64,000 nucleotides of DNA from a virus: positions 5,053 to 69,052 of IMG/VR virus record IMGVR_UViG_3300013233_000137. One strand, 5' to 3'. Below, piece after piece: positions 12,029-31,584 of this stretch (the first letter of the stretch is position 1; the number at the start of each line of letters is the position of its first letter). Under the pieces are notes generated by a model, which was not told the origin of the DNA, made no database searches, and worked only from the letters and a program-made list of their open reading frames with translations. A program made the position numbers and the translations under genes.

Positions 12029-12180
12029 AGTATCTCCTTAGCGATTGAAATGTGTTTACAGGTTCCTCTGTAGAAGAACCCACGGCAAGTGCAACTGAAC
12101 TCGCTATCAATAACTCGTACAATATACTTCTGCCCCTCACCACTTGGTCTACTTATTTCAACCCATGTTTTCTCTCCCAT
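11998..12180 (-). CDS. SWIM zinc-finger protein
   Basis: FSCTCRGFFYRGTCKHI (CxC...CxH). Confidence 0.75.
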   Translation of the reverse strand: MGEKTWVEISRPSGEGQKYIVRVIDSEFSCTCRGFFYRGTCKHISIAKEILCLQENTSKK

Positions 12181-12830
12181 ATCATAGCCACCTCCTTTAG
12201 AATTTGTCCAATACGTGAAGCAGTCAATCCAATCTTGCTCGCAATCTCTCGGTCAGTATATCCTTCCATCTTCATTTGTACTATCTTGGCTTCCCGTTTT
12301 GATAAATGATTTAGGAAATCAGTTACCACTAACTTGTCATCATCAACAGTAAAAGGTAATATAGATATAGGCCCACTATATACATAAGCTGTATTATCTT
12401 CGTCCTCCTTACCATACTCCATACTAAAGTAGGAATGGAAATAGTGCTTAACATCTGAACTTCTCGGTATATGGATTAGCTTATTCTCTCTGAGGAAGTT
12501 CGCAATGTGACCATGTATATGGCTGACGATCCATCCCGATATCCCATTGTCCTTCAGCCGATCGACTTTGCCTATGGCATCGAGAATACCGCAATACATC
12601 TCTGCTAAGATGTCCTCTCGACTATCAGGGAAGTAAGATGCGTATCTTGCTGCTATTGTCACGCCTAGACGCATGTGTCCCATGATAATAATGTCTCGGG
12701 CATGTATGTCGCCCTCACGTAGCTTTTTGATTTGGTAAATCAATTCTTGTTCTGGGAGTGGCGATGGTAGGTTCCCCAGTTCGTGCGCTATGCCATATTT
12801 CTTATGTCCCTTAATACCCCCTAAATACAT
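12153..12830 (-). CDS. Sigma-70 family sigma factor-like protein
   Basis: GDIHARDIIIMGHMRLGVTIAARY (region 2.1-like); HTH LSKREAKIV...YTDREIASKIGLTASRIGQI. Confidence 0.82.
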   Translation of the reverse strand: MYLGGIKGHKKYGIAHELGNLPSPLPEQELIYQIKKLREGDIHARDIIIMGHMRLGVTIAARYASYFPDSREDILAEMYCGILDAIGKVDRLKDNGISGWIVSHIHGHIANFLRENKLIHIPRSSDVKHYFHSYFSMEYGKEDEDNTAYVYSGPISILPFTVDDDKLVVTDFLNHLSKREAKIVQMKMEGYTDREIASKIGLTASRIGQILKEVAMIWERKHGLK

Positions 12831-14705: not shown

Positions 14706-15024
14706 GAATACTATCTTGGTGTTTTATGGCTATAACTAAATCTTCTCGGCTTAATTGGGAATACCTTGGAATACGTAGCTTACATCCAAGGGTCTTCAAC
14801 GTGGTATATGCTATAGGTCTTGAGTCCTTTCCTTCCTCGATGATCAGGTCAATAAAACAATCACTAACAGATATTCTAAGCATCTTGGAGATTGACTCGA
14901 CGGCTTCTTCCGGTACATCATTGACCTCTAGGAAGTAATCCAGCCGCCTTAACTTCTTAATCAAATTTCCAAGGGCAATACGTAAATCTATTTTTCCCCC
15001 CATGATTGGATGCCCTCCTTCCAT
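14632..15024 (-). CDS. Hypothetical protein
   Basis: ORF; C-terminal LRIPRYSQLSREDL resembles a Rho-N-like helix pair. Confidence 0.5.
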   Translation of the reverse strand: MEGGHPIMGGKIDLRIALGNLIKKLRRLDYFLEVNDVPEEAVESISKMLRISVSDCFIDLIIEEGKDSRPIAYTTLKTLGCKLRIPRYSQLSREDLVIAIKHQDSILGDFIEKGERYARGTRANESSRAR

Positions 15025-17165
15025 TTTATCTTAAGAAGTGGAATTATTTCCTTGTTCTTCTTCACAAATGTCTCCACGATGTTGGTAGCTTGATTTACTA
15101 AATCAGGAAGCATAGGTGCCATTATCTCATCATGGACATTCATAGGCATTATATGCCACTTACAAATGCCTCTTGGCTGTAACTCCCATAACTCATACTG
15201 TAGTTGCTTGGTCAGTGTCGCTCCTGGAGACTGGATAACATGGTTACCAGCAGCCCGCATATTAGCACTTTGAATCTGGAAGGCCGCGCCGTATAGGGCA
15301 CTTTGCAATGCCCCTACAGCCGTTTGTTGGCGGTCACGCCTAGTGACCTTGAGCTTGTAGCGCTTCCACTCTTTAGGTGGCTCTTGGGCCAGATCATATA
15401 GGGCTTTACAAATCTTATTCTCAAGGGTGAAGTATCTCTTGAAGCCAAACATACTTTCAATATATTCTTTGGGTTCATGCCATTCCACGGCGGTGCCGAT
15501 GCCATTAGGCTGACGCATACTGCAAAACATGTCAAAGATCTTTTGCCTAGCGGCGGCCACCCCAGTGTAATCTTTACCGAAGTCCTCGAAAGCCTTGACC
15601 GCGATGTCATGCGGTATGCCAAGCTTCGACTCTAAAGTAAACTCTGTACCCCCATAACCCATACCAAATATACCTTGCTTACCATCTTTATACCGCGTTC
15701 CGTTGATGTACTTGTTATTGAATACTCCGGCCTTCTCCTCGGCCATCACCTCCTCATATGTGCATCCGGGATACAACTTCGTGGCGAAGATCGCATGGAT
15801 CTTCTTACCAGATAGTAATTGCTCTCGGAGGTTCTTATCTTTCCACTCCGCCTCCATAAGACTTACCTCAAAGGAGGAGAAGTCGCCTCCACATAATACC
15901 ATGCCGTCAGGGGACAGAGGGAATTTCGATCGAACCTTACCATCTTTCTTGATACCTTGGGGGTTGAGACCATCGGAACCGGACATCCTTGTACTTTTGG
16001 TGCCGATGATTCGGAAGCCGGCGTGGAACTTTCCAGCTTTGATAAGCTTGTCATATAATTCAACTTCCTTTTGGGCTTCACGGGCATTCATAACTTCTCT
16101 AGCGGCCTTAGCAGCGGGGTGGTCGCCCCACTTCATTACCTCTTGTAGTATGACCTTCCCCGTTCCTTTCATCACGATCTTCTCGGTATCACTCATATTC
16201 ATAGTGATATACTTCATAACCATATTGGGGGCAGTAGGGGTACCCTCGAAGGCCAAATGTGCTTGCTTCCTTAGTTCCTTCAGGCCTGAGATATCGACCT
16301 TATAGCCTTTCCATCTTACGGCGGCAACCATACAAGCTAATTCGGAATCTACATCCCCAGTAGGAGGGGAGCCAAAGTATTTATACAAATCCCTGGTGTA
16401 GATAACATCGTTCTCAGCGTACATCTTACCGAAACGATTGAAGGCCCAGTAGGAGATATGGTGCCTAATGACCTCTGGCCAGTTGCTACCATAGGGAACG
16501 TACTTATCCTCCTTTGGATACCAGGTCTTGTCGATACCAATGTCCCCTAGCAGTAGTATTCGATCTTCCTCAATACCAAGCGCATGTAAGGCCAAGGCTT
16601 TCAGGGCTGTACTTGGCTCGAACTTCATCTCCAAATCCTTGAACATCGGATCATCGGTGTCTCGGACTTGCCATTGTGGAGCCTTGCGTTTACGTCTTGC
16701 AAAGTAAATATTATTAAGCGGTATAAGTTCCTCAAGCTTCTTGGCCAGGTTCTCTGCCAATATAGTTGGTATACGTTTAATACGTATTGGCTTACGATTC
16801 ATCGTCGATTGAAAAGGACCTTTACGAGCATGGAGCATTAGGTCTAAGGCAGCTTTAGGACGTAAGCATGGTCCCTCTTGAGATGGCACTTCTTGATTCG
16901 CTAAATCAATTATGATATCTTCAGGATATGCGTCGTAATCATGGTGCAGACGTAACATATTATAGATCTTGGAGAGCTGGAACTGGTCGAAGACCAGATT
17001 GAAGCCACATACCTCATTAGCCATCATATCCTCGATGAGAGTTAAGGTATCTATAATCGGCAGCTTCCAAATGTTATGGAGGACAACTGGGCCATCATCA
17101 ATGGCATACTGGATTAAGACTGCTGGACCGTGGAGACCGCAGGTTTCGGTGTCATAGAAGTACAT
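14988..17165 (-). CDS. polA: Family A DNA polymerase with 3'-5' exonuclease
   Basis: Exo YDTETCGL, FNLVFD, YAENDV; pol motif A DFSSFE, B KDGKQGIFGMGYG, C VHDE. Confidence 0.92.
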   Translation of the reverse strand: MYFYDTETCGLHGPAVLIQYAIDDGPVVLHNIWKLPIIDTLTLIEDMMANEVCGFNLVFDQFQLSKIYNMLRLHHDYDAYPEDIIIDLANQEVPSQEGPCLRPKAALDLMLHARKGPFQSTMNRKPIRIKRIPTILAENLAKKLEELIPLNNIYFARRKRKAPQWQVRDTDDPMFKDLEMKFEPSTALKALALHALGIEEDRILLLGDIGIDKTWYPKEDKYVPYGSNWPEVIRHHISYWAFNRFGKMYAENDVIYTRDLYKYFGSPPTGDVDSELACMVAAVRWKGYKVDISGLKELRKQAHLAFEGTPTAPNMVMKYITMNMSDTEKIVMKGTGKVILQEVMKWGDHPAAKAAREVMNAREAQKEVELYDKLIKAGKFHAGFRIIGTKSTRMSGSDGLNPQGIKKDGKVRSKFPLSPDGMVLCGGDFSSFEVSLMEAEWKDKNLREQLLSGKKIHAIFATKLYPGCTYEEVMAEEKAGVFNNKYINGTRYKDGKQGIFGMGYGGTEFTLESKLGIPHDIAVKAFEDFGKDYTGVAAARQKIFDMFCSMRQPNGIGTAVEWHEPKEYIESMFGFKRYFTLENKICKALYDLAQEPPKEWKRYKLKVTRRDRQQTAVGALQSALYGAAFQIQSANMRAAGNHVIQSPGATLTKQLQYELWELQPRGICKWHIMPMNVHDEIMAPMLPDLVNQATNIVETFVKKNKEIIPLLKIKWKEGIQSWGEK

Positions 17166-17632
17166 ACTCCTCTCCTCCAAACCCCTACAAGATACCATGG
17201 ACGCTCGACTTTGTGTAGTTCAAAATCTGGCAGATCAGCTTTACCCCATAGACTACGGTGACGATTGTAGATATTACCATAGTAGAAAGAGTTAGGGCCT
17301 ATATTCAAATTCTGTGACCATTTATAAGGCGTTAAGAGGATTATCTCCTTATCGCATATCTTCTTGGCCTGCTCAAGAACCTGGAAGCCACGTGGCTTAG
17401 TGAGATGCTCAATAAAGTCCAGCATTAGAATAATATCGAACTTCCATGACATGTCCAAATCTCCGAACTCCATATTACGGACAATGGTGGGGCTATATGA
17501 CTCCTCGACATCAATGGTAGTAACCCTATTGAAATGCTTCGAGATCTTCTTGTCACCACAACCTATATCAAGTATTGTGGGATTCTCATATAAGGCAACA
17601 CGTTGATTTACGAAATCAGCTAGACTTTTCAT
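17114..17632 (-). CDS. Class I SAM-dependent methyltransferase
   Basis: ILDIGCG, FDIILMLDFIEHL. Confidence 0.85.
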   Translation of the reverse strand: MKSLADFVNQRVALYENPTILDIGCGDKKISKHFNRVTTIDVEESYSPTIVRNMEFGDLDMSWKFDIILMLDFIEHLTKPRGFQVLEQAKKICDKEIILLTPYKWSQNLNIGPNSFYYGNIYNRHRSLWGKADLPDFELHKVERPWYLVGVWRRGVCTSMTPKPAVSTVQQS

Positions 17633-18525
17633 ACGCTCTCCATACCTGACATGCTTGAGACGCTTTCATGTGGAACAATATAGGGTCGTCCTAGTTTCGC
17701 AGCTTGTGCACGGATTTCCTGGTAGACTGAATTATCGCTGATCTCCCCAGAGGCCCAGGCTAAGCAGCGAGTACCGAAGTTATTGCCAATGGACTTCTGA
17801 ATATGGTCCATCATGCAGAAGATCTCATTACGTTTACGATGCCGTTTGATTAAGGAGTTCTCACTATGTTTTTTCTTGATTATTGGAGCGCGATTGCCCT
17901 TCTCCTTGGCATTTTTAATTTGCCTTACTGCCTCGAACTGCATCTCCTTCGTTGGCAGTTTCGAGATGTCCCGAATATTGTATTGGGTCAGAACTCCAGC
18001 GGCAGCTTGCTGCTGAATCTCATGTGGGAGTTCCAGGAGTTTTATACGCATCTGGACCCAAGTTGTGGACTTCCCTAACTCATTAGCTATTTGCTGATAG
18101 GTTAGTTTGAAGGAGGCCAAATGTTCAACAGCTTTGGCCTCCTCCATGATGTTGAGGTCTTTACGTAGGAGGTTCTCCCGGAGGTTGATAAGCCTAGCAT
18201 CGCATTCATCAGCAGAGGTAGTCACCGTTGCACGAATGGTTGCCCAGTTAAGGATCTTATGACAGGTGAACCTCCGGAACCCCGCTATAAGACGGTATTT
18301 GTATTTCTTACCGAAGTGATCCCCAGAATGTCTCTGAACAATAACAGGTGATAGTAGGCCATTGTTGCTGATATCCCGAACAAGATCCTGTACATCTATT
18401 GGGGCTATTGCACCACGGCAGTTCAGACCCTCATCCATGAGAATCTCCTTGAGTGGAATATCTAGTATCTCATTACTTGTTTGCTGACCTTTTAGTGGTA
18501 CGCCAATGTCTGCGCTCTTAGTCAT
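17629..18525 (-). CDS. ParB/Spo0J-family protein 1
   Basis: GLLSPVIV, LIAGFRRF (GxRR), ENLLRKDL, HTH LTYQQIANELGKSTTWV. Confidence 0.9.
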   Translation of the reverse strand: MTKSADIGVPLKGQQTSNEILDIPLKEILMDEGLNCRGAIAPIDVQDLVRDISNNGLLSPVIVQRHSGDHFGKKYKYRLIAGFRRFTCHKILNWATIRATVTTSADECDARLINLRENLLRKDLNIMEEAKAVEHLASFKLTYQQIANELGKSTTWVQMRIKLLELPHEIQQQAAAGVLTQYNIRDISKLPTKEMQFEAVRQIKNAKEKGNRAPIIKKKHSENSLIKRHRKRNEIFCMMDHIQKSIGNNFGTRCLAWASGEISDNSVYQEIRAQAAKLGRPYIVPHESVSSMSGMESV

Positions 18526-20447
18526 GATTTCTCCCAGGTTATTATGTCCTCGGTTCTCTTAGCTCGTTCATTCCAATGGTACTTGAAGTCCCCAAGGCTT
18601 ATGGCCTGTAGCTTACGCTTGGCCTTGAGGTTCTTCATAATCATATAGTCCGTTTCCAAATGTACCAAATCAATGATTGTTGCTCCTCGGTTAGTATCCA
18701 TCCCTGTACGGTGAATACGATCTTCACTTTGTATTCGGGACTCCGCGTTGAAATCATTACTGTAATAGATGATTACCGGTGAAGCCGTAAGGTTCAGACC
18801 CATGCCAGCTGCCCCTGGTTGACCAACAAATGCTAAGCGGGGATATTGATTTAGTAAATCAATTCTTTTGGGATGGGTTCTATCGAAGGCTTCAAGGTAT
18901 TCTCCGGAATCACCATCTCCTATTGTATGCCAACCACGTCCATCAACACGTAGTACGTCCCATTTCTGCTTTTGGCAGACTTTGACAATACGGTCTATAG
19001 AACCAGTAAACCCACCATAGATTACTACACGGCCTTGCTCACTATATTCATCAAGCAGGTCAATAAGCACATCTTCCTTCGGACAAGGAACCTCTGTAGT
19101 CACGCGTTGGAACTTCGGTATCTTCTTGAACCCACCGCATTTATCGCAGATGACGTTTTCAGTCTCGGCTTCCGCCCCGTCGAACTCAGCTGTATTCTCT
19201 GGTTTCTCATATATCGGTACGTCAATACGGCCAGTACCCTTGCATAATGGACATTCCTCCATACCTATCTGCTCCTCGGAATACTGGAATCCATCACTCA
19301 ACTCCCTCATGGACTCAAGACCCGTGATGACCCTCGGAGCTGTATCCACTAGAACCTGTGCCACTCTCAATATCTCATCAGAAGGCTTACACTCGATAAC
19401 CTTATAGGTCTTCTCTGGAAGGTCGAGGCAATCCTTCTTGAAGAATACCTTAACCAATCCAGTCATTCGTCTATATAGGGTTTCAACCTCGTTTATCGAG
19501 GTCTTAAAGAGATGATCGGCTATGGTCACATGGTCAGCTTCATATAATCCGCACTTAGCGCACTTCTTCTCGTCATCAAGCCAAGTTACTAGATGAGGAT
19601 ATACTCCACCAGTTATGGGTTGCTCACGCTGTTCAACTATCGACATGCGATTCTTGAACTTATGTATATCGCCTTCACGGAGATACCCTGGACAAGCTAT
19701 AGAACATTGCATCCACCAGTCAGCAGGGGATTTCGGAGCCGGTGAGCCTGACATCAATATTACGAATCCCTTATCTCCCCAGTCTTCGCGGACACCTTCT
19801 GCTAACTGCATAGCGGCTTGACTACGTAGGGCTGTAGGGGTTTTGACACGGCTTGACTCATCGAAGATCACGACATGTGGGGCTTTACGACCTTCAGGCC
19901 ATTTATCTATAACGCCCCTTAATTTGGCGTATGTCATGAACTCGGGCCTTACGTCACATCCCCATTTCCTGAACTCCAATTTCACGGCTTGAAGCGCACT
20001 TCGTGGACCTATCCAGAATACATCTTCAAAACCACTTTCCTCGATAAGTTCAATGGCAGCCAGAGTTTTACCACATCCCATCTCGGCAGCCCAAATTCCG
20101 TAGTGAACAAGGAGCCCATGGGCTACCATCTCAAGCTGATGTTTGAATAATGTTCTTGTAGTGATATAAGGGGCAGGAGCCTGGTCATAGATCTCAAATG
20201 GATCGTTACCCATGAGGTAATTGAGTTGGAACCAATTATGTCTACAATCCTTTACTGACCAGACCTTACGGGGTGGGGCCTCGAAGCCATGCCATTTGGC
20301 ACCTTGCATAGCTTTGACTTCGTCTTTTAGCACTTCATTATATGGGAAGGACAAGAATAATCTGTCTCCTTCTTTCGCTATCTTAGTAGTCACCCAACGA
20401 TTTCCTCCTCGCAACTTACATTCTCTAACATCGGTAGGCATGTTCAT
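18522..20447 (-). CDS. SNF2-like superfamily 2 helicase
   Basis: EMGCGKT, DESS, SGSP, GMGLNL, QSEDRIHR; CxxCxGxG zinc insertion. Confidence 0.9.
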   Translation of the reverse strand: MNMPTDVRECKLRGGNRWVTTKIAKEGDRLFLSFPYNEVLKDEVKAMQGAKWHGFEAPPRKVWSVKDCRHNWFQLNYLMGNDPFEIYDQAPAPYITTRTLFKHQLEMVAHGLLVHYGIWAAEMGCGKTLAAIELIEESGFEDVFWIGPRSALQAVKLEFRKWGCDVRPEFMTYAKLRGVIDKWPEGRKAPHVVIFDESSRVKTPTALRSQAAMQLAEGVREDWGDKGFVILMSGSPAPKSPADWWMQCSIACPGYLREGDIHKFKNRMSIVEQREQPITGGVYPHLVTWLDDEKKCAKCGLYEADHVTIADHLFKTSINEVETLYRRMTGLVKVFFKKDCLDLPEKTYKVIECKPSDEILRVAQVLVDTAPRVITGLESMRELSDGFQYSEEQIGMEECPLCKGTGRIDVPIYEKPENTAEFDGAEAETENVICDKCGGFKKIPKFQRVTTEVPCPKEDVLIDLLDEYSEQGRVVIYGGFTGSIDRIVKVCQKQKWDVLRVDGRGWHTIGDGDSGEYLEAFDRTHPKRIDLLNQYPRLAFVGQPGAAGMGLNLTASPVIIYYSNDFNAESRIQSEDRIHRTGMDTNRGATIIDLVHLETDYMIMKNLKAKRKLQAISLGDFKYHWNERAKRTEDIITWEKS

Positions 20448-20941
20448 TTCTCCTCTAAGATGAAAGTCCCATCGGGTAACATCGTCTTGGCGTAGGAGTC
20501 CCAGATTAAGCCATAACCATGGGCCTCGAACTCCAATAGTAATGTACCAAATAGTGTCCGTCTAACTTGTTCCTCATCTTCTTTGAAGATCAAATTAGTA
20601 CGTATGGTGTCCTTCCACTTCCTAAGTGTCCCATATAATAAGTAAAGTTGATTTGATAAATCAATTTTACTTATCGAGGCGTACCATCCTTTGTTGATCT
20701 CATCAACCAATATTGAAATGTTTATCGCCTCCAAAAATAAATGGCCATTACGTATAGTACGCATTGGCTCCTCGGTCCTACCTGTTAATTCGTTTAATGT
20801 CAGAGCATAAGTTAGTGGCTCATTGAACTTTAGACTAGAGTTATCTAGTGTTCTGGTTGGATATCCATTATTGGAGGTCTTGCAGAACTCCAAATATTTT
20901 GGCCAGTTGATTCGAGATTCACTAACCCATACTATTTCCAT
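20444..20941 (-). CDS. Hypothetical protein
   Basis: 165-aa ORF with GGAGA RBS. Confidence 0.65.
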   Translation of the reverse strand: MEIVWVSESRINWPKYLEFCKTSNNGYPTRTLDNSSLKFNEPLTYALTLNELTGRTEEPMRTIRNGHLFLEAINISILVDEINKGWYASISKIDLSNQLYLLYGTLRKWKDTIRTNLIFKEDEEQVRRTLFGTLLLEFEAHGYGLIWDSYAKTMLPDGTFILEEK

Positions 20942-20959
20942 GTGTTCTCCAAGAAATAA

Positions 20960-21027
20960 CTAGGGGAGAGGCAATCAGGTTCAGGAGGAACCTTGTGGGC
21001 CTCACAGCTACCACCCTCTCCCCTAGT
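20960..21027 (-). other. Multi-branch stem-loop downstream of the SSB-like gene
   Basis: 12-bp stem CTAGGGGAGAGG/CCTCTCCCCTAG enclosing two small hairpins. Confidence 0.6.
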
Positions 21028-21038
21028 GAGCGATTGCA

Positions 21039-21671
21039 CTACCGATCGCGTTTGTCGTCCTCGGCTACCTCTTCACTCTCGGCGCTTGCGAACTTTAGTG
21101 CCTGCTTCTTGATCTCCTCCATAGGCGGTGTCTCGAGAGGCGTTGAACATTCAACGACCAACGGACCATACCATGAGTACTTCTTCGTCTCGATGAAATG
21201 AGTCTTAAACGTGGCGGCTTTGTGCATCAGCTTAAAGATGTTCTTAGCCTCACGTCTTGCGGTGATACTGCAACAGAAATATGTTGCAAAGGTCTTGGCA
21301 GTGGGGATGTATACCAGGAACTCTGGGCCCCACAGGCACCCTGAATCCTTTACCGTGGAATTATCGGCAATAGTCTTGAAGGTATCGCTCTCTTTCTCAT
21401 GTGAGAATATAGGTTTCTCACCATTGGTATCTAATGCTGTCCAGCGCATATGAATAATCAAGATATCTACTTGATTTGATAAATCAACGACATCATCTTC
21501 ATTACGAACCAGGCCCCAATTACCGGCCTCAACTTGTTTTCTTTTACAGATTTTGGAATTCGTATCTGCGACTTGCAGACGGGGAAGAAACTCCCCACTC
21601 GAAACTTCTTCATTAAATGCCTCTTGGGTCACTGGCAATGCTGGCATGTCCTCGAATTTAACAACGTCCAT
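21039..21671 (-). CDS. Putative ssDNA-binding protein
   Basis: Replication-module position, LPRLQ motif, acidic C-terminal tail. Confidence 0.55.
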   Translation of the reverse strand: MDVVKFEDMPALPVTQEAFNEEVSSGEFLPRLQVADTNSKICKRKQVEAGNWGLVRNEDDVVDLSNQVDILIIHMRWTALDTNGEKPIFSHEKESDTFKTIADNSTVKDSGCLWGPEFLVYIPTAKTFATYFCCSITARREAKNIFKLMHKAATFKTHFIETKKYSWYGPLVVECSTPLETPPMEEIKKQALKFASAESEEVAEDDKRDR

Positions 21672-21754
21672 TTGAGCTCCTTGAGATTAGTATGGCCTGG
21701 GACCATCACTAGGCCCCAGGCTGATTTAGTAAATCACTTCCAAGCCATACAATG

Positions 21755-21943
21755 CTATCCTATACCATATCTTACGAGATTATGGGCATGTAGAAAACTA
21801 GCCCACCCTCGTTTAAGGCCCTCTGCAATTATCCATGAAAGAAATTCCTCTTCATGTTGTTTACAAAGCCAGATAGGATTGCCCTGGATATAGACCTTTT
21901 CTGCTGGTAATTTGAAGTAACGATCACAGGCTATACAGTCCAT
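21755..21943 (-). CDS. Small Cys/His protein
   Basis: CIAC...LCKQH. Confidence 0.5.
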   Translation of the reverse strand: MDCIACDRYFKLPAEKVYIQGNPIWLCKQHEEEFLSWIIAEGLKRGWASFLHAHNLVRYGIG

Positions 21944-21979
21944 AGTATCCCCATATAAGTATGGCTTAAACGTTTGTCA

Positions 21980-22930
21980 CTATGCTACGGCTTCGGCGGT
22001 CTTCTCTGCTGCCGCTGCCGCTTTCTTTGCCTCACGCTCGGCCTTACGCTTGGCCTTAAGCTCATCCTGTTCAGCCTTCTTCTGTTCCCAGGTTGCCTTG
22101 GCAACCTCGATAGTCTCGGGGTCCATACGCAGAACCCACTTCATCGCCATACCAAATCCCTCTTCAGGCGTTGACAGGGAATGAGCTGCACAGAGTGCGC
22201 TTGCTGTGGTGCCACCTGCCAGTTCCTCTTTCAGTTCAGCGAGAGGACGAAGACGCGGGGCTGCAACGAACTCCTCGGGCTTCGCATCCCGGCCTTCACG
22301 CTTGGCAGCACGGATCTCGGCCAGACGGGCTTTGACCTCTGGAATGAACTTCTGGGGCGTATCAGTCTGGGCGCGATCCAGGAAGTTTTCCTGCTCATCT
22401 TCAGGGAGCTTTGCAAGGTGGTTAGCATTGCTGACACAAATGTCACCATCATCTACCAATGCCGCAATCTTCTCATTGAGCTTAACCAGACCCAAACGAT
22501 CATGCAGCCATCCGGTACTTACGGAGAGCTTCTCGGCCAGTGCTGACATGGAGAGGAACGGATCAATACTCAGAAGGCGGTTAAGCTGCTTGGCATACTC
22601 CGCCGGACGGGTTTCGATCTTATGCAGATTGGTAGCCAACTGAGCTTCCAGAACACCTGCTTCATCCATGTCCTTCATAAGCATCGGGATCTCATTCAGG
22701 CCAGCATCCTTCGCTGCATTGAATCGCTGCAAGCCATCAATAAGGCCGATGTACTCTTCCCCAGTTTCCGGGTCCTTACACATACGGCCCAGAGGCGGAT
22801 TCAAAATACCTTTGGTACGTATGGAGTCCACCAACTCCAGATAGCCTTCGCTGTCACGCTTCACCTCGCGCAATGCTGATGGATTCTCACGAATCCGATG
22901 CAAAGCAACCATTTCCATCGTTTCTGCCAT
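21980..22930 (-). CDS. ParB/Spo0J-family protein 2
   Basis: ELVDSIRTKGILNP, LIDGLQR, ATNLHK, HTH LSMSALAEKLSVSTGWL, Lys/Ala-rich tail. Confidence 0.88.
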   Translation of the reverse strand: MAETMEMVALHRIRENPSALREVKRDSEGYLELVDSIRTKGILNPPLGRMCKDPETGEEYIGLIDGLQRFNAAKDAGLNEIPMLMKDMDEAGVLEAQLATNLHKIETRPAEYAKQLNRLLSIDPFLSMSALAEKLSVSTGWLHDRLGLVKLNEKIAALVDDGDICVSNANHLAKLPEDEQENFLDRAQTDTPQKFIPEVKARLAEIRAAKREGRDAKPEEFVAAPRLRPLAELKEELAGGTTASALCAAHSLSTPEEGFGMAMKWVLRMDPETIEVAKATWEQKKAEQDELKAKRKAEREAKKAAAAAEKTAEAVA

Positions 22931-22984
22931 TTTGTTTCTCCTATATTAAAACGACTATCAATCTACATAGATTGATTTGATTTA

Positions 22985-23671
22985 CTAAATCAACGTAAAT
23001 AACTTCTCGATATTCTTCTTATTTCCAATGGCTAGATCAAGGGTCGAATACATCTGCCTTGAGAATATGCACTTGAAATCCTCTGGAGCATTGTACTCCG
23101 AGATGTATACCTTATGCCCTTCTGCTGTTTTAGCCCTACACCACTTCCAGAAGGCACTATGATCAAATGTCATACCATATCCCTGTGTACCTTGATAAGG
23201 TGGATCGCAATATATTATACTATTGGATGGGATATCCAAATAGCAATAATCTTGGAATATTAATTGGGCACCTTGTAATTTCTTAGATTGCTTTACCGCT
23301 GATCTGTATGCCTCTGCCACCTCATCTATACCCTTACCTCTACGCCACCCACCAAAGAACTTACCACCAAAGGATAAGGCGAACCCCACATATGAGGCCA
23401 AAGGGCCCAAGGAGTATTGTAGCATACCATATTGGTATTCATTTAACTCTGCTTCGCTCTTAGGTATAAGATCAATATGATCACGAATGAGGCGCAAGGC
23501 TGCTATGGCATGACTATTTACGTCTGCTCCTATTCGTGGGCCGGTGACTTGGCAGATACTATTCCCGCCTCCAACGAAGGGCTCTACATAGTATTGTCCT
23601 GGTTTACGGGACCTCAATATCTTAGGAAGGATGAGCCTAGCTATTCTAGTCTTACTGCCGATGTACTTCAT
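22985..23671 (-). CDS. dam: DNA adenine methyltransferase (Dam-like)
   Basis: KYIGSK, YVEPFVGGG, YCDPPY. Confidence 0.9.
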   Translation of the reverse strand: MKYIGSKTRIARLILPKILRSRKPGQYYVEPFVGGGNSICQVTGPRIGADVNSHAIAALRLIRDHIDLIPKSEAELNEYQYGMLQYSLGPLASYVGFALSFGGKFFGGWRRGKGIDEVAEAYRSAVKQSKKLQGAQLIFQDYCYLDIPSNSIIYCDPPYQGTQGYGMTFDHSAFWKWCRAKTAEGHKVYISEYNAPEDFKCIFSRQMYSTLDLAIGNKKNIEKLFTLI

Positions 23672-23683
23672 TCTCTGTCCTTA

Positions 23684-23873
23684 TGATTTACTAAATCAGG
23701 GCCGGGTGTGAGCCATATATACATGGGTTTAAGGGTCTTCGCCCTCCCATAGCTTGTATACTTGGGTCAGATATACAACGGCGACATAGGCCACTACGGG
23801 GTACTTCCTTCCTCGTATATTAGGATGCCCGGTCTTTGCCTCCCATGACTCGCGGCCCTGATTTAGTAAATCA
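23684..23873. other. 190-bp element with 21-bp perfect terminal inverted repeats; candidate structured RNA
   Basis: TGATTTACTAAATCAGGGCCG...CGGCCCTGATTTAGTAAATCA with internal complementary segments. Confidence 0.5.
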
Positions 23874-23879
23874 CCCTCT

Positions 23880-23932
23880 TCTCAAATTGATTTGGTATCT
23901 TGATTAAATCAAAATAGTAAATCAATTTGAGA
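23880..23932. repeat. Compound palindrome of half-sites
   Basis: TCTCAAATTGATTT-GGTATC-TTGATTAAATCAA-AATAGT-AAATCAATTTGAGA. Confidence 0.85.
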
Positions 23933-23964
23933 CTTGTGCCACTGTCACTTGTCGCGCACCTTAC

Positions 23965-24025: not shown

Positions 24026-24245
24026 GTGTAACGTTTCGTTACACTGTAACATATCTTTACCTACTACTAGGGCCCTTAAACTTCTCTCTATAGGGATTTT
24101 TTTTCTTTTTTTCTCTATAGAGCAACTTAATATATAAAAATAGTAAGTTGTAAGTGACTATATACCAACATGTTACAAGGGCCTATTTACTGTTTTCTGG
24201 AAAACCTGGTAACCGGCTTGTAACATGTTGTCATATAACGACTTA
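24026..24245. other. Candidate replication origin
   Basis: Noncoding; GTGTAACG-TTT-CGTTACAC palindrome, T-tracts, inverted 29-mers at 24151 and 24217; upstream of the primase-helicase operon. Confidence 0.45.
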
Positions 24246-24254
24246 GAAAAACGC

Positions 24255-24283
24255 TTGACTTACTGCTTTGAAATGCCTATAAT
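24255..24283 (+). promoter_or_regulatory. Rightward sigma70-type promoter (primase operon)
   Basis: TTGACT-17 bp-TATAAT. Confidence 0.75.
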
Positions 24284-24308: not shown

Positions 24309-24362
24309 ATTGATTTGATATTTTGATTTGAATCAAAATACTAAATCAATTATAGAAATCAA
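24309..24362. repeat. Compound palindrome of half-sites
   Basis: ATTGATTT-GATATT-TTGATTTGAATCAA-AATACT-AAATCAAT plus a further AAATCA 13 bp on. Confidence 0.85.
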
Positions 24363-24418
24363 ATAGGAAGACGTATTAGTCGCTGGAAATTGATTTAGTA
24401 AATCAGAAAGGAGGACCA

Positions 24419-24592: not shown

Positions 24593-24780
24593 AACTGTAT
24601 ACGAGTTTTGAGGCAGCAAGAAACAGTATTGAGCCAGTGTTTTTACCTAAATTCTGTTACCTAAAGGACAATGAGGCGATGTGTGGAAACTGGTGCCCAC
24701 ACTTCCATATCATTAAAACCGGTAGTGTGAAGATAACATGTAGTCCACAAGAGGTTTTCATTAAAGTCGAGGAGCAATGA
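24589..24780 (+). CDS. Small Cys-rich protein, paralog of 90..296
   Basis: MCGNWCPHF...CSPQE; AGGAGG RBS. Confidence 0.7.
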   Translation: MKLYTSFEAARNSIEPVFLPKFCYLKDNEAMCGNWCPHFHIIKTGSVKITCSPQEVFIKVEEQ

Positions 24781-27464
24781 TGCCCACAAGAACTGAAGCC
24801 ATTAAACGCTTTCTCACCGCCAAAACCCATGCCGATCTGGCAGGTCTGTACTCCCATGATATGGAATGTCAGGTCAACGTGGCCCAGGATGATGGCGAAC
24901 GTGTAGAAGGTGACTACCAAGGTAGGCAGTGGCATGGTTGGAGTAATGGTTTGGAGACCTGGAAGAGCTTCCGAATACCGTATAAAGCAAACTCCAAGCC
25001 AGAGTATACCGATAAGGAGATGTCCTTTGATTTAGTAAATCATTCCGAAGGTATAGGGATGACTGGATGGAACTGGAAACTAGGAGTTAGTAAGTGGGTT
25101 GCCTTCGACTTCGATGCCATCACGGGTCATAGTGATAAGCATGCCAGTAAACTAACCCCCAATGAGCTTGAGGAGATCAAAAATGTTACAATGGCTGTGG
25201 ATTGGATTACAATTCGTAAGAGTACATCGGGAAAGGGGTTACACCTATACGTTTATCTTGATGACATTAGGACGGTTAATCATACGGAGCATTCAGCATT
25301 GGCAAGGGCCATTCTCGGGAAGCTCTCCGCTATAACAGGATATGATTTCCAGTCAAAGGTCGATGGGTGCGGGGGTAACATGTGGGTATGGCACCGTAAG
25401 ATGACCAACACCGATGGCCTAACACTTATAAAGAAAGGTATAAAACTCTATGACATACCTCCGAATTGGCGTGATCACCTGCAAGTAGTTACCGGAAAAA
25501 GGCGAAAGGTCAACATCCCGGATGTAGACAATATCGATGATTTCGAGGAACTACTGGGGCAGGGTACGTATGTCACTTTGGATGAGGAGCATAAGGCACT
25601 AATCACCTACCTCACGGAGAAGAACCTCTTCTACTGGTGGGATCAAGACCATCATATGTTGGTTACCCATACGCTTAACCTCCAGGACGCCTACGATGAT
25701 CTGAATATGAAGGGGATCTTCAAGACCAATTCCCCTGGGACTAATCGTGATGAGCAGAACTGCTTTGCCTATCCGATCAAGAACGGCGGCTGGGTGGTAA
25801 GGCGATTCACGAAGGGGATCAATGAGGACCTATCATGGGAGCAAGACGGCAATGGCTGGACGAAATGCTTTCTAAACCGTTCTCCTAACCTCAAGATCGC
25901 AGCTGTGAGTTCCGGTGGTCTTGAAAATGAGAGAGGGGAGTTCATCTTCCGCCACGCTCAGATGGCCCAAGACGCCGCTCTCAAGCTGAATGCCAATGTG
26001 ACCTTGCCTCCTTGGGCACTTGGACGTAAGGCCAGTATTAAACAACATAAAGACGGTAGGCGAATCGTATTGGAGATGGATCATCAGGCCGAGGATAGTA
26101 TGGAGAAGGGCTTACAAGGTTGGCTACTGGAAAAGGGTAAGTGGAAGAGGATCTTCGACGTGGCAGCTACGGAAACCCGTGCTGAGCTTACTAACTATGA
26201 TGATTTAGTAAGACATTTAGTGACCGAGGGATCAGATGACGCAGGATGGGTGATTAAAACCGATGAGGAATGGCAGCAAGAGCCTTACCAGCATATCAAG
26301 GTCGCCGTGGAAAGCCTTGGCTTCAAGGCCACAGAGGTTCGCGGGATACTTGGGGCCAGTATCTTCAAGCCCTGGAAACTGGTTAATCAGCCATTTCAAC
26401 CGGAATACATCGGTGATAGGCAGTGGAATCGGGACGCCTCCCAATATCGTTTTATGCCTACTCTAAACCGCGATGACTTGAGCTACCCTTGTTGGATGGC
26501 TATTCTAGATCACATAGGTAAGAATCTCCAAGAAGCCGTAGCCAACAATGGTTGGGCCAAGGCCAATGGCATTCTCACTGGTGCTGATTATCTCAAATGC
26601 TGGATAGCTTCCCTACTGCAAGAGCCATTACAGCCACTACCTTACCTGTTTCTCTACGGTCCGCAAGGTAGTGGTAAATCCATTCTACCCGAGGCGCTGA
26701 GTCTGTTGTTCACCAAGGGCTACGCTAGAGCAGACATGGCCTTGAAATCTAAAGATGGTTTTAATGGCGAACTACGTAGTGCTATATTGTGTTCTATTGA
26801 GGAGACGGACTTAAACCGTAATAAGCAAGCATCGTCACGTATCAAGGACTGGGTGACCAGTCTTCAACTACCTGTTCATGTGAAGTGTAAAACCCCGTTC
26901 TTAGTACCGAACTCCACACATTGGATTCAGACTGATAACGACCAGGCGGCATGTCCAGTATTTCCGGGCGACACCCGTGTCGTGGTGATCTACGTTGAGA
27001 GCGTCGATCCCATTAAGTTAATCCCAAAGAAGAAGTTGATACCAATGCTAGAGAAGGAGGCCCCGGACTTCTTATCAAGTTGTCTTGGCATCGAATTACC
27101 GGCCTCCCCTGATAGGCTTAACATCCCAGTTGTGACAACGGCGGAGAAACACTCCATCGAACTAGGTAACCGTACAATGCTTGAGGTCTTCATCGAAGAA
27201 CAATGCCACCATGTCCCCGGGGAGATGATCAAGTTCTCAGCGCTTTATGACCGATTTCGAGAATGGTTAGAACCAAGTGACGTCAATAGCTGGTCGAAAA
27301 TACGTTTTGGCCAATACTTCTCTGCCAATATGCATAAGTACCCCAAGGGCCGTTCAACTAAGAATGGGCAATGGCATATCGGTAATATAAGTTTAACTAA
27401 GGTTCCAGTCACAGGGGCTCCCTATATTGTTCAAGATGATATGCTTAGGGAGGGTAAACTATGA
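24777..27464 (+). CDS. Primase-helicase (AEP/prim-pol N-terminus, SF3/D5-like helicase C-terminus)
   Basis: FDFD, STSGKGLHLY, Walker A GPQGSGKS, Walker B IEE, TDN. Confidence 0.88.
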   Translation: MMPTRTEAIKRFLTAKTHADLAGLYSHDMECQVNVAQDDGERVEGDYQGRQWHGWSNGLETWKSFRIPYKANSKPEYTDKEMSFDLVNHSEGIGMTGWNWKLGVSKWVAFDFDAITGHSDKHASKLTPNELEEIKNVTMAVDWITIRKSTSGKGLHLYVYLDDIRTVNHTEHSALARAILGKLSAITGYDFQSKVDGCGGNMWVWHRKMTNTDGLTLIKKGIKLYDIPPNWRDHLQVVTGKRRKVNIPDVDNIDDFEELLGQGTYVTLDEEHKALITYLTEKNLFYWWDQDHHMLVTHTLNLQDAYDDLNMKGIFKTNSPGTNRDEQNCFAYPIKNGGWVVRRFTKGINEDLSWEQDGNGWTKCFLNRSPNLKIAAVSSGGLENERGEFIFRHAQMAQDAALKLNANVTLPPWALGRKASIKQHKDGRRIVLEMDHQAEDSMEKGLQGWLLEKGKWKRIFDVAATETRAELTNYDDLVRHLVTEGSDDAGWVIKTDEEWQQEPYQHIKVAVESLGFKATEVRGILGASIFKPWKLVNQPFQPEYIGDRQWNRDASQYRFMPTLNRDDLSYPCWMAILDHIGKNLQEAVANNGWAKANGILTGADYLKCWIASLLQEPLQPLPYLFLYGPQGSGKSILPEALSLLFTKGYARADMALKSKDGFNGELRSAILCSIEETDLNRNKQASSRIKDWVTSLQLPVHVKCKTPFLVPNSTHWIQTDNDQAACPVFPGDTRVVVIYVESVDPIKLIPKKKLIPMLEKEAPDFLSSCLGIELPASPDRLNIPVVTTAEKHSIELGNRTMLEVFIEEQCHHVPGEMIKFSALYDRFREWLEPSDVNSWSKIRFGQYFSANMHKYPKGRSTKNGQWHIGNISLTKVPVTGAPYIVQDDMLREGKL

Positions 27465-27667
27465 TAGCAGATATCCTTAATGCCCTTGAACCAGAACAGC
27501 ATAGTCAACTTATGTATGCCTTCGAGCAGGGGTTCTCCCAGATTATTATCTATGAACCTGGACGATTCATAGGGGTCAACATCTCGAATATTAAGAATCT
27601 TGATTTAGTAAATCAGGAAGGAGACTGGTCATGCGGAACGGTAAGAAATACGACACGGGGAAACTGA
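27461..27667 (+). CDS. Hypothetical protein
   Basis: ORF with ATGA overlap. Confidence 0.6.
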   Translation: MIADILNALEPEQHSQLMYAFEQGFSQIIIYEPGRFIGVNISNIKNLDLVNQEGDWSCGTVRNTTRGN

Positions 27668-27993
27668 GGTGGTGCCTACTGCCCTGGAAGCAAGTAGGTA
27701 AGATCGTAGGGGTACTCAACTTCGGTGCTGAGAAGTACGGCGATGACAATTGGAAGGAGGTTGAAAATGGCCGGCAACGGTACTTCTCCGCTGCCATACG
27801 TCATCTGAGCGCATGGTGGGAAGGGGAGTCTAAGGACCAGGAATCTGGGCTCCACCATCTCGCCCATGCAGGTTGTTGTATACTTTTTCTTTTATGGATG
27901 GAGGATTGCGATGAGACTATTAGCAATAGCCATGGTCATGACTATGGCTCTGATAGGGTGCCAGAATCAGGGTCAGAGGGCGTTGCCCTCTGA
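27631..27993 (+). CDS. dATP/dGTP diphosphohydrolase domain protein (DUF5664-like)
   Basis: KYDTGK, GAEKYGDDNW, AAIRHL, DQESGLHHLAHA. Confidence 0.85.
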   Translation: MRNGKKYDTGKLRWCLLPWKQVGKIVGVLNFGAEKYGDDNWKEVENGRQRYFSAAIRHLSAWWEGESKDQESGLHHLAHAGCCILFLLWMEDCDETISNSHGHDYGSDRVPESGSEGVAL

Positions 27994-28721: not shown

Positions 28722-29967
28722 TGGCCGGGATCACCCACTCCGGACTATAACGTCTTAGGTCTGTATCAAGCATCTTACGGTGACGTAAGAAACGTTCGGG
28801 CTTACCATGTTCTTCAGGTTTACTGCCTACGCATTCCGCGTAGGCAGTTTTCTTGTTGACACAGGCATCAAAGCATACCATACGAATCTTCGTAATGCCG
28901 AATACCTTACACAAACCAATAGCTATCTGGGCAGATAGACTAGAATCCCGTAGACCGAGGCTCACTGCCTTGTAGACCACGCGATTGGCGAAGTCCTTAC
29001 CACATTGGCTTGCCATAGTGCTTATGAACATCTTGGTCTTGGTCTTACTGGGAACACACTTCTCACCTAAATGGGAATCCTGCTGAACTACTATAGTGCT
29101 ATTAGGTAGGTCCAAGGACTCTACCTTATGGATCGCCTCGTTCAGGGCGATGATTGGGCCATCGACGATATCGGCAGCGGTAAGGTTGTCAAGACTAGGC
29201 CCTTTACCGATGATATTAGCTGTTTGTCCTTTGAAGATATCACGTAGCAGATCGAGGTCGGTATCCTTGACATCTGGATACCACTTCCGCTCATTGGGGT
29301 ATCTGGTGAGGTTGCTATCCATATATTCCTCGATAGCTTTATCTCTACGAACCAGATAAAATGTCCCATCAGCTAAGATACGTATCTTACTGGGCAATAC
29401 AAATCCGGTACTCATAATTTTCTCCTTAACCTTGTTTTTACGATATTTCCTACTTGCCTGGTAATGTGTTATCACGGGGTCCTTGATCTTTCGCATGAGG
29501 TCGAAGATCTTGATATACTTATCTGGCAATGGCTTGATACTCATCTGGGACTGGAACTTCGGGATCAAGGTCGCCATGACTTCCTGATCGAAGACCCTAG
29601 TATGCTCCTTCTGGAGCATTACCCATGCCTCAATGAACGGCATAGCATTACGGTTGAAGTATAGCGTCCCGGAAAGAGGCTCCTCACCGCGAAACTTGTA
29701 GTAGTGCATATCTCCGGTGAAGATATCCTCGGGCTTCCGATCGAAGATCGCATCGGCATCGACGTACAGTATCTTCTCGAAACGTTCGAGACAATGTAGT
29801 ATGAACTCGGGCTTTATAGCGCAATTCTCAATCCATAGTCCACGACTTGGATACTTCTTGATATAATGCTCGATGTCAAGATGTTTAAGACTCTCTTGAA
29901 GTGGCTTAACTACCTCCTCATAGTCTCCTTCCGTGTAGTAGGCACACACTGTATATGGTACGGTCAT
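28681..29967 (-). CDS. Two-domain glycosyltransferase (GT-A plus MAF/GT29-like domain)
   Basis: YVDADA (DxD), FDQ, HYQASR; C-terminal IIGKGPSL, IALNEA. Confidence 0.75.
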   Translation of the reverse strand: MTVPYTVCAYYTEGDYEEVVKPLQESLKHLDIEHYIKKYPSRGLWIENCAIKPEFILHCLERFEKILYVDADAIFDRKPEDIFTGDMHYYKFRGEEPLSGTLYFNRNAMPFIEAWVMLQKEHTRVFDQEVMATLIPKFQSQMSIKPLPDKYIKIFDLMRKIKDPVITHYQASRKYRKNKVKEKIMSTGFVLPSKIRILADGTFYLVRRDKAIEEYMDSNLTRYPNERKWYPDVKDTDLDLLRDIFKGQTANIIGKGPSLDNLTAADIVDGPIIALNEAIHKVESLDLPNSTIVVQQDSHLGEKCVPSKTKTKMFISTMASQCGKDFANRVVYKAVSLGLRDSSLSAQIAIGLCKVFGITKIRMVCFDACVNKKTAYAECVGSKPEEHGKPERFLRHRKMLDTDLRRYSPEWVIPATSNPSSDDKPQQS

Positions 29968-30896: not shown

Positions 30897-31584
30897 ATTG
30901 GGCTCCTGGCCTGTTATTCCTAACTATAATACCCCTTCTAGCCTCGAATAATCTCTTATTATATTGCAAGGCCCTATGATTCCGTGAAGGGGCTCGACGG
31001 TCATGGAAGAGGTGGACGACCTGTTCTGGGATGGCACGGTAACTAGCTCCCAGGTCTAGGAGTCTAGTTACGAAGTCATCGTCATCATATCCTTGACCGG
31101 TGAAGTCCTCGTCATATCCACCTATCTCCTGGTATAGGGTCTTCTTCAGGGCCATACAGAATGGCAGTTTGGTATTCAATTGTGGTAGGAAGCTATAAGC
31201 TTCGGGGCATCCCTTCTTATATCTCTGGACATAGGCTAGGTACATGCCGTTATCATCCCTACCATTTGGGATCACCATCTCTAGGTCACCGACCTTGAGG
31301 TCGGCGAGCACATCTGTGGTGTGGTAGATCTCTGCACAACTGAGGACCACGGTCTCCCCGTCCGAGGCCGCGACACCCAGGTTGAAGGCCCAAGCTGGGC
31401 ATCTCCACTTCGTATTACCGGTGTAGAGGTAAGTGCAATCATACTTCTTAGCTATGGCTTCCGTGGACCCAGGAGGCCCGTCGTTAACCAATACTATTTG
31501 ACCTTGGAAGTATTCACGAATCCTCGGCAATGTTAGGTGTAGCAGATGATCTCGGTTGTGTGTCGTCAATACTATACTTATCAC
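30844..31584 (-). CDS. GT2/GT7C-type glycosyltransferase
   Basis: ISIVLTTHNR, VNDG, GGYDEDFTGQGYDDDDF, HLFH. Confidence 0.88.
   Translation of the reverse strand: MISIVLTTHNRDHLLHLTLPRIREYFQGQIVLVNDGPPGSTEAIAKKYDCTYLYTGNTKWRCPAWAFNLGVAASDGETVVLSCAEIYHTTDVLADLKVGDLEMVIPNGRDDNGMYLAYVQRYKKGCPEAYSFLPQLNTKLPFCMALKKTLYQEIGGYDEDFTGQGYDDDDFVTRLLDLGASYRAIPEQVVHLFHDRRAPSRNHRALQYNKRLFEARRGIIVRNNRPGAQYANELHGCRNDALEISF

Follow-up and report, generated by a model that had tools for sequence, protein, structure and literature searches.

Two paralogous ParB proteins, designated here ParB1 and ParB2, are encoded in the replication region of an uncultured tailed phage without sign of lysogeny, which is represented by the IMG/VR virus record IMGVR_UViG_3300013233_000137. 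The record is a linear contig of 69,052 bp, and its bases 5053 to 69052 constitute the 64,000-bp stretch analyzed here, referred to as the window, whose own numbering is used for all positions unless stated otherwise. The two proteins are old paralogues and a fixed part of the replication module in a large clade of uncultured siphoviruses, which look virulent. One of them carries the canonical residues of a predicted cytidine triphosphate (CTP) clamp, the other departs from these at the same two positions in every aligned member of its family, and no ParA was found on the contig. The genome also holds a dense set of short palindromes, and the explanation which we tentatively prefer connects these with the pair.

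The ParB1 protein matches the Pfam families ParB_N (6.2e-9), HTH_ParB, which describes the helix-turn-helix (HTH) domain (8.7e-14), and KorB (9.7e-6). The scores are 36.2 bits for PF02195 (cut-off 26.3, with a six-frame search in agreement), 52 bits for PF17762, and 25.9 bits for the KorB DNA-binding domain PF08535 (cut-off 22.3), for which the orthologue in the related record G002 scores 23.7 bits. The ParB1 family comprises 257 clusters at E ≤1e-5, and in all 101 aligned sequences the residues G82, R84, and R85 of Box II (G-x-R-R; GFRR in this phage), E117, N118, and R121 of Box III (ENLLR), and N35 and R37 are invariant; ParB1 also has the NCRG motif, the NCR of which is invariant in the family. 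Judged by these residues, ParB1 retains every motif for CTP binding and hydrolysis and has the make-up of a canonical CTP clamp. Its AlphaFold2 model has a predicted local distance difference test (pLDDT) score of 91.9, with low confidence for residues 1–15, and Foldseek matches it to Noc, ParB, and KorB, with the Noc structures as the best matches for both structure and sequence.

ParB2 matches ParB_N at 1.4e-11 (44.7 bits, against the cut-off of 26.3) and HTH_ParB only marginally (PF17762; 8.8e-5, 23.0 bits against a cut-off of 22.6), and has no match to the KorB domain PF08535. Its family counts 77 clusters at E ≤3.3e-38, with 73 sequences aligned. In the equivalent of Box II (GLQR in this phage) the Gly and R69 are found in 73/73, and position 68 is Q in 41 and H in 32 sequences, never R. 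In the equivalent of Box III (TNLHK) N101 is invariant (73/73), whereas position 100 is A, T, G, L, or M and the Glu occurs in 0/73. The first Arg of Box II and the Glu of Box III, as found in a canonical CTP clamp, are therefore missing from the entire family, and because the changes are a family property, ParB2 is not a decaying copy but a paralogue under selection with an altered nucleotide pocket. Loss of the Box III Glu is expected to abolish hydrolysis in ParB, an expectation that reportedly goes back to the E111Q mutant of the B. subtilis protein. With the hydrolysis Glu and one phosphate-binding Arg gone, ParB2 has probably lost hydrolysis. For KorB, CTP binding is reported to be abolished by R117A and not by N146A (PMC11790492). 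The AlphaFold2 model of ParB2 has a pLDDT of 85.7 and ends in a long helix rich in Lys, Ala, and Glu; the last 45 residues of the family members consist on average of 25% K+R and 28% Ala.

ParB1 and ParB2 share 27% identity over 152 amino acids (E 2e-9), and since the profiles of the two families align from residues 15–241 of ParB1 to residues 1–238 of ParB2 with a probability of 99.4%, the proteins are paralogues well beyond the HTH. Searched against structures, the family profiles match Spo0J, Noc, and ParB at 1e-21 to 1e-30 and KorB more weakly, at 1e-13 to 1e-17; both the profiles and the AlphaFold2 models (Foldseek) align through the DNA-binding domain of the Spo0J, Noc, and KorB structures. 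The canonical C-terminal dimerisation domain PF23552, which is carried by more distant bacterial matches, has no match at E ≤0.01 in either ParB1 or ParB2, and the C-terminal parts of both consist of family-specific helices.

The distribution of the pair was followed in nine records, namely this contig (G000) and the related records G001–G008, of which G002 is a complete relative (84,413 bp, direct terminal repeats, 100% complete). When IMG/VR was scanned with the alignment of the ParB2 family, 155 contigs proved to encode a relative, and 80 of these were kept; counts out of 30 refer to loci with full 10-kb flanks and depend on those flanks. Open reading frames (ORFs) were called crudely, as the longest ORFs after a greedy overlap filter. 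Two ParB_N genes are present in eight of the nine records, the ninth being a 40% fragment with parB2 at its end, and 29 of the 30 loci encode one ParB1-type and one ParB2-type gene. The order at the locus is a divergent primase, then ParB2, p210, (p165), the SNF2-family helicase, ParB1, and the family A DNA polymerase PolA. Homologues of the primase-helicase, p210, the SNF2 helicase, and an exonuclease are found at 30/30 loci, p165 at 23/30, and PolA, which is often cut off by the end of the locus, also at 23/30. In this phage the start of parB1 overlaps the stop of the SNF2 gene, and its stop overlaps the start of a small methyltransferase gene, in both cases as ATGA. The methylase genes that adjoin both parB genes are a peculiarity of the subclade (1/30 and 2/30 loci).

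An earlier note, made from the sequence of the window alone, had described two divergent full-length ParB ORFs, each with a ParB N-domain and an HTH, with GFRR in one and GLQR plus a Lys/Ala-rich tail in the other, inside a replication operon. Both genes are real, the motifs and the tail are as described and prove to be fixed across the families, and the location is borne out by the flanking Dam methylase, SNF2 helicase, small methyltransferase, PolA, and divergent primase-helicase genes. The division of labor which the note suggested gains support from the sequence split between the motifs, canonical in 101/101 members of the ParB1 family and altered in 73/73 of the ParB2 family.

Six-frame searches of the whole 69,052-bp contig found nothing for ParA (PF13614, PF01656) or for integrase (PF00589), and Pfam scans of 100 contig ORFs list no ParA/MinD, recombinase, or repressor family. 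Among the nine records, PF13614 (AAA_31) and the tyrosine integrase family PF00589 are each found in 0/9, and PF01656 is found in 0/4 (the contig and G001–G003). The Pfam scan of 112 of the 115 G002 ORFs of at least 70 amino acids (the other three crossed piece boundaries) shows no ParA/MinD, recombinase, repressor, or telomerase-like family. The N-terminal ParA-binding motif (L/F/I)G(K/R)G(L/F/I), in the definition given in PMC12704722, occurs in 0/101 ParB1-family and 0/73 ParB2-family sequences. Of the hallmarks of a type I partition system (ParABS), a nearby ParA, the ParA-binding motif, and PF23552 are thus all lacking. The absence of ParA and integrase which the earlier note had reported for the window thereby extends to the whole contig and to eight relatives including the complete one; its further suggestion, that a host ParA is used, finds no support in two families that both lack the ParA-binding motif.

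The palindrome TGATTTASTAAATCA is present in 37 exact copies on the contig, 33 of them in the window, where 49 matches with at most two mismatches compare with 0.2 expected. The density is about one per 1.9 kb, with a median spacing of 1.7 kb, and the sites span all modules. Of the exact sites, 24 lie inside ORFs, 8 are intergenic, and 5 are on gene edges, in a genome of which about 7% is noncoding; 12/37 precede a start codon by no more than 60 bp, where 8.8% would be expected. The complete relative G002 has 40 exact copies of the same 15-mer, with 25/40 within 60 bp upstream of a start (about 9% expected), and in G003 the set is degenerate, with 4 exact, 14 one-mismatch, and 15 two-mismatch copies. 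More distant relatives have variant palindromes with the outer tGAT...ATCa in common. One such set is found in G004 (130 kb), with 74 copies of GATTAWTAATC, of which 28/74 likewise precede a start by at most 60 bp (about 9% expected); further variants are GATTT-N3-AAATC (L122–L126, L026, and L028), GATTC-N2-GAATC (L105, L113, L132, and L138), GATGC or GATGG-N2 (L078, L079, L094, and L112), AGTTA-N-TAACT (L066), and the site GATGCCGGCATC. A reading of the 15-mer as an RNA hairpin or terminator was rejected (−2 to −4.6 kcal/mol, with two of three copies no better than shuffles), and because RNA folding is weak, the preferred reading of the palindrome is a site in double-stranded DNA recognized by a dimeric protein.

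The palindromes are tied to the pair by position and by covariation. Sites cluster ahead of parB2 in this contig, in G002 (two, 55–166 bp upstream), in G003 (two or three), and in G004 (five within 230 bp), and a palindrome with GAT arms is present in the primase–parB2 spacer of 20/30 loci, compared with 182/567 size-matched control windows (32%). Across 48 loci with both genes, the recognition helix of ParB1 exceeds the remainder of the protein in conservation (64% vs. 46% pairwise identity), and the recognition helix of ParB2 is no better conserved than the rest of ParB2 (53% vs. 55%). All four loci with at least four GATG-type sites have Gly144 in ParB2 (WI[A/G]GR), whereas at loci with GATT-type sites residue 144 is E, Q, D, or S, and the ParB1 helices of these loci do not differ from those found elsewhere. 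ParB2 is thereby suggested as the putative reader of the variable part of the site. The earlier idea that the proteins act at the palindromes is plausible in view of the clustering at parB2, the excess over control windows, and the covariation with the helix; the connection so drawn is an indirect one.

As an explanation we favor, tentatively and at slightly less than even confidence, a ParA-independent pair in the manner of KorB or Noc, in which ParB2 would occupy the palindromes without CTP hydrolysis and ParB1 would be the CTP clamp, in the service of transcription or of the organization of replicating DNA and not of partition. As the first conserved gene product of the early leftward operon, ParB2 would bind the tGAT...ATCa palindromes as a dimer, and this binding would serve for autoregulation at the early divergent promoters and label the starts of many genes. 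ParB1, whose gene is coupled in translation to that of the SNF2 helicase and directly precedes PolA, would act as a sliding clamp dependent on CTP, which is loaded onto the phage DNA at the palindromes or close to them, or is held there by ParB2; the latter would parallel KorB, reported to be held by KorA (PMC11790492) or TrbA (PMC13584720). The output would be control of the transcription program or organization of the replicating DNA. Partition is unlikely in view of the lytic replication operon that contains both genes and of the lack of ParA, of a ParA-binding motif, and of any lysogeny gene. A more far-reaching possibility, which we regard as unlikely without dismissing it, is a ParA-free phage “chromatin”: a hydrolysis-dead, basic-tailed ParB2 would nucleate about every 1.9 kb and load or lock the ParB1 clamp, so that the replicating genome would be coated. 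If this were true, the coat would time transcription, hold phage and host DNA apart, or protect the phage DNA against nucleases of the host, and helix and palindrome would coevolve across the clade.

Several observations weigh against the KorB- or Noc-like reading. We infer the assignment of the palindromes to ParB2, since the covariation may rest on one or very few evolutionary events and since the ParB1 helix departs from its consensus in the very subclade that has the 15-mer (STTW..IK, SFGW..TY, and SYGW..TY, against SRGW..YM); by its helix, ParB1 could also be the palindrome binder. Other candidate owners of the sites could be the two sigma-like factors, an HTH_23 protein, or the products of the many small ORFs, and 24 of the 37 exact sites fall within ORFs. 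No dispersed palindrome is found in the high-GC (guanine-cytosine) relatives G001 and G005–G007, although they keep both paralogues, and the dense genome-wide sites are therefore not needed for the role of the pair. ParB2 may also still bind a nucleotide. It should also be noted that the completeness of the contig is about 75% (CheckV), and that the distant relative G005 is labeled a provirus by IMG/VR.

The two proteins could instead have separate jobs without cooperation, ParB2 as a site-specific repressor or autoregulator at the early divergent promoters and at the many palindromes close to genes, and ParB1 as a replication accessory that, for example, marks or clamps replicating DNA for SNF2 and PolA and has a different, conserved target. 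Such a separation would account for the constant places of the genes, parB2 always heading the operon by the divergent control region and parB1 always between SNF2 and PolA, for a ParB1 helix that is conserved across phages with differing palindromes when that of ParB2 is not, and for the enrichment of sites directly upstream of start codons. Across 44 distinct loci, however, no candidate ParB1 site was found: no palindrome is common to more than six of them, and the widely shared 11–14-mers look like coding conservation. The genes are also kept together in 29/30 loci, which fits a joint function and is no proof of it, and we give separate jobs a small but real chance. A different factor altogether, for instance a host protein or a sigma factor or regulator encoded by the phage, might own the palindromes, in which case the role of the ParB proteins would be unrelated and the placement of the sites would reflect the early promoter region. 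This would agree with the lack of dispersed palindromes in relatives that have both ParB proteins, with the two sigma-70-like genes and the HTH_23 protein encoded here, and with sites that flank sigma-70-like promoter matches. Symmetric palindromes of 15–17 bp, however, fit a dimeric HTH protein and not a sigma factor; palindromes with GAT arms recur upstream of parB2 even where there is no genome-wide set, and residue 144 of ParB2 tracks the difference between GATG- and GATT-type sites. We consider an unrelated owner improbable.

Further from the palindromes, the ParB N-domains might be accessory or targeting subunits of DNA-modifying enzymes, in this case the neighboring Dam-like and small S-adenosylmethionine (SAM) methyltransferases, given the translational coupling of parB1 with a Methyltransf_23-like gene and the position of parB2 behind the gene for a D12-class methylase. 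In phages, the ParB fold is reported to occur frequently in fusions with Methyltransf_23 and N6_N4 methylases (PMC12704722), and ParB activators of 5mYOX enzymes exist (PMC13229309). The homologues of the two methylases are present at only 1/30 (Dam) and 2/30 loci, the Pfam scans of 100 ORFs contain no Tet_JBP family, and the 5mYOX activators are reported to have no DNA-binding domain, when ParB1 and ParB2 both have the ParB HTH. A methylase partnership as the core function is rejected because the neighbors are unconserved, and in any form we hold it to be quite improbable. Very improbable, finally, is true partition of an extrachromosomal, plasmid-like prophage through a host ParA or an unrecognized NTPase, with the palindromes as centromeres in the manner of N15. 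Dispersed centromere-like palindromes, the fully canonical CTP motifs of ParB1, the provirus label of one distant relative, and an incomplete contig would be in keeping with it; against it stand the 0/9 records with ParA or integrase, the complete relative with no ParA, repressor, recombinase, or telomerase-like family among 112 ORFs, the ParA-binding motif in 0/174 family sequences, and the fixed order of both genes with helicase and polymerase inside a lytic replication operon.

Gene regulation by a ParB-type CTP clamp without ParA is reported for KorB with KorA (PMC11790492), and ParA-independent regulation of this type on mobile elements is also reported in studies of TrbA (PMC13584720) and BisD (PMC12409273). 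KorB of RK2 (IncP) resembles the pair in having a ParB-family N-domain and an HTH on a mobile element, and ParB1 passes the Pfam cut-off for KorB. RK2 has dispersed palindromic operators of odd length near promoters, 12 sites with the core TTTAGCGGCTAAA (PMC11790492), with which the 37 copies of the 15-mer here, as gene-proximal candidate sites, may be compared. KorB is a gene regulator that acts as a CTP clamp aided by a second DNA-binding protein, and the proposed action of the present pair is likened to it on this account. Unlike the proteins here, KorB also partitions with IncC (ParA) and has an IncC-binding peptide; the second protein here is a ParB paralogue and not a small KorA-type repressor, the element is a lytic-looking phage, and the profiles of the two families agree more closely with chromosomal ParB and Noc than with KorB.

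Noc, the nucleoid occlusion protein of the Firmicutes and itself a Spo0J/ParB paralogue, binds palindromes that are dispersed in large number over a genome, keeps its CTPase motifs, and has an N-terminal membrane-targeting helix. Its structures are the closest to ParB1, as described above. ParB2 differs in lacking the Box II and Box III residues and has no N-terminal extension; an N-terminal amphipathic helix is not evident in ParB1 or ParB2, with no search aimed at one, and the context is phage replication and not cell division. Noc is also reported to have arisen by duplication of ParB and to be free of ParA (PMC12704722). The same survey reports that orphan genes of the ParB-CTPase fold, located away from any parAB operon and devoid of the ParA-binding motif, are widespread, including in phages; in its available part we found described neither a canonical-plus-degenerate pair in a lytic replication module nor genome-wide palindromes in a virulent phage (PMC12704722). 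BisD (PMC12409273) and VirB are likewise reported as ParB-like, CTP-dependent regulators without ParA. With KorB, they are known from plasmids and integrative and conjugative elements. The 5mYOX-associated ParB proteins are phage ParB homologues with a nonpartition role, and mutation of their nucleoside triphosphate motif is reported not to have abolished function, which may be compared with the altered motifs of ParB2 (PMC13229309). They differ in adjoining a 5mYOX gene and in having no obvious DNA-binding domain, whereas both proteins here have an HTH and the 100 scanned ORFs no Tet/JBP family. No paper on a ParB pair or on ParB-linked dispersed palindromes in a lytic phage was found in the literature covered, with subscription journals and supplements outside its scope. 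Within this literature, three features appear new: a canonical and a motif-dead ParB conserved as a pair, the constant place of that pair in the replication module of a large clade of uncultured siphoviruses, and palindromes, about one per 1.9 kb, whose form changes with the clade.

Table 1. Features of the parB1–parB2 region and landmarks of the structural module, in window coordinates.
Feature	Position	Strand	Remarks
PolA, family A DNA polymerase	14988-17198	-	downstream of parB1
Small class-I SAM methyltransferase	17114-17632	-	translationally coupled to parB1; 2/30 loci
One-mismatch palindrome copy	17604-17618		11 bp beyond parB1 stop
parB1	17629-18525	-	298 amino acids; canonical-motif ParB paralogue
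ParB1 HTH recognition helix STTWVQMRIK	18040-18069	-	clade consensus SRGWVQVRYM
ParB1 Box III ENLLR	18163-18177	-	residues 117-121
ParB1 Box II GFRR	18271-18282	-	residues 82-85
SNF2-family helicase	18522-20447	-	641 amino acids; between the parB genes
Exact palindrome copy	18847-18861		inside SNF2 gene, 322 bp upstream of parB1 start
p165	20444-20941	-	conserved; no family from scans
p210	21039-21671	-	directly after parB2 in 30/30 loci; acidic tail at end
Exact palindrome copy	21722-21736		between p210 and 62-amino-acid ORF
Cys-rich ORF, 62 amino acids	21755-21943	-	0/30 loci, unconserved
parB2	21980-22930	-	316 amino acids; degenerate-motif ParB paralogue; AGGAGA ribosome-binding site ahead
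ParB2 Lys/Ala/Glu-rich C-terminal helix	21983-22120	-	residues 271-316 (about); one long helix in AlphaFold2 model
ParB2 HTH recognition helix STGWLHDRLG	22490-22519	-	positions 139, 140, 143, 144 variable across clade
ParB2 Box III equivalent TNLHK	22619-22633	-	residues 100-104
ParB2 Box II equivalent GLQR	22724-22735	-	residues 66-69
Exact palindrome TGATTTACTAAATCA (17-bp version)	22978-22992		48 bp upstream of parB2 ATG; second palindrome ATCAATCTATGTAGATTGAT beside it
D12-class (Dam-like) N6-adenine DNA methyltransferase	22985-23671	-	heads leftward operon in this phage only; 1/30 loci
Exact palindrome copy	23684-23698		12 bp upstream of Dam start
Exact palindrome copy	23859-23873		divergent control region
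Imperfect composite palindrome, about 50 bp	23886-23936		TTGATTT-type half-sites; downstream of leftward promoter-like site (23993-23965)
Sigma-70-like promoter TTGACT-17-TATAAT	24255-24283	+	consensus match only, 11/12; faces primase operon
Second imperfect composite palindrome	24309-24351		TTGATTT-type half-sites; just downstream of the promoter match at 24255-24283
Exact palindrome copy	24391-24405		directly before ribosome-binding site of first rightward gene
Primase-helicase (DUF5906/D5-like)	24777-27464	+	divergent; 30/30 loci
Tape measure protein	45464-49474		PHROGs/Pfam scans
P22-like coat protein	56279-57661		PHROGs/Pfam scans
Large terminase	60690-62306		PHROGs/Pfam scans

The features of the locus and its surroundings are listed in table 1. 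Between the two composite palindromes of the divergent control region lies an AT-rich stretch (about 24090–24160), and the composite palindromes could be operators or part of a replication origin. The p210 protein has no Pfam or PHROG match and resembles, by Atlas features and structure only, viral clusters that are partly labeled Pam3_Gp34/DUF5895; it may be a partner of ParB2 or a replication protein of the single-strand-binding type. The SNF2 orthologue of G002 (L017:1531-4338, 935 amino acids) contains an intein with a LAGLIDADG homing endonuclease (Intein_splicing 6.5e-21, LAGLIDADG_3 1.2e-18), and the copy in the window is without intein.

Outside this locus, PHROGs and Pfam scans identify a siphovirus-type structural module at 32.7–62.3 kb, which includes a portal protein, and an early or replication region that encodes PolA, the SNF2 helicase, the divergent primase-helicase, an exonuclease, a ligase, a VRR-NUC nuclease, the two sigma-like factors, and several methyltransferases. 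No cultured phage proved to be close: tblastn searches of ParB1, ParB2, and PolA against 50,697 phage records gave at best 24–36% identity over at most 74% of the query. The two sigma-70-like factors (2496-3020 and 12153-12830, both on the minus strand) have regions 2 and 4 below the Pfam cut-offs and match PHROG 351 at 1.9e-10 and 1.4e-21, and the phage probably redirects the host RNA polymerase. Three one-mismatch near-copies of the palindrome, at 12307, 12728, and 12849, lie in or just upstream of the second of these genes.

Putative genes for DNA or nucleotide modification are found at 27631-27993 (+), 29967-30896 (−), 30844-31584 (−), 33260-34051 (−), 32745-33260 (−), and 3004-3807 (−) of the window and at L003:1373-1837 (−). 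The set includes a dATP/dGTP diphosphohydrolase N-domain (PF18909, 6.6e-33), a radical SAM protein, two family-2 glycosyltransferases, SAM methyltransferases, a C5 cytosine methylase, and a DUF1937/nucleoside 2-deoxyribosyltransferase-like protein; of these, the genes for the diphosphohydrolase, the radical SAM protein, and the glycosyltransferases are found in G002 as well, and the phage DNA may be modified. A tail-fiber-like protein (41654-43384, minus strand) has the N-domain of the major tropism determinant (Mtd_N, 2e-10), which G002 has too; a diversity-generating retroelement is not evident, because the Pfam scans list no reverse transcriptase. The contig opens with about 11 tandem copies of the heptamer ACCCAAG (L003:1-85, before the window, or about −5051 to −4975 in its coordinates), G002 has a similar 7-bp array of the CCTATAC type in about 10 copies, and G001 terminates in ten copies of the 9-bp unit CTTGCAAGN, such that short tandem arrays may be a feature of genome ends in this clade. 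The motif CTTGCAAG-N-CTTGCAAG of G001 was rejected as a dispersed palindrome, as it corresponds to the 9-bp tandem array at the contig end.

CTP clamps of the ParB type are known to act beyond partition in Noc, KorB, VirB, and BisD, and orphan ParB proteins are common in phages, where their roles in lytic members are essentially unstudied. The pair described here offers a useful case, in which a canonical and a degenerate paralogue have been kept together for long at a fixed place in the replication module, together with a dense, assayable candidate site that varies between relatives. The clade forms a natural series in which the sharing of work between a clamp and a motif-dead paralogue, and the evolution of the DNA specificity of ParB, can be followed, as well as the role of ParB in a virus that never needs partition. 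If the proteins do coat phage DNA, they would also bear on the organization of phage genomes and on the evasion of host defense.

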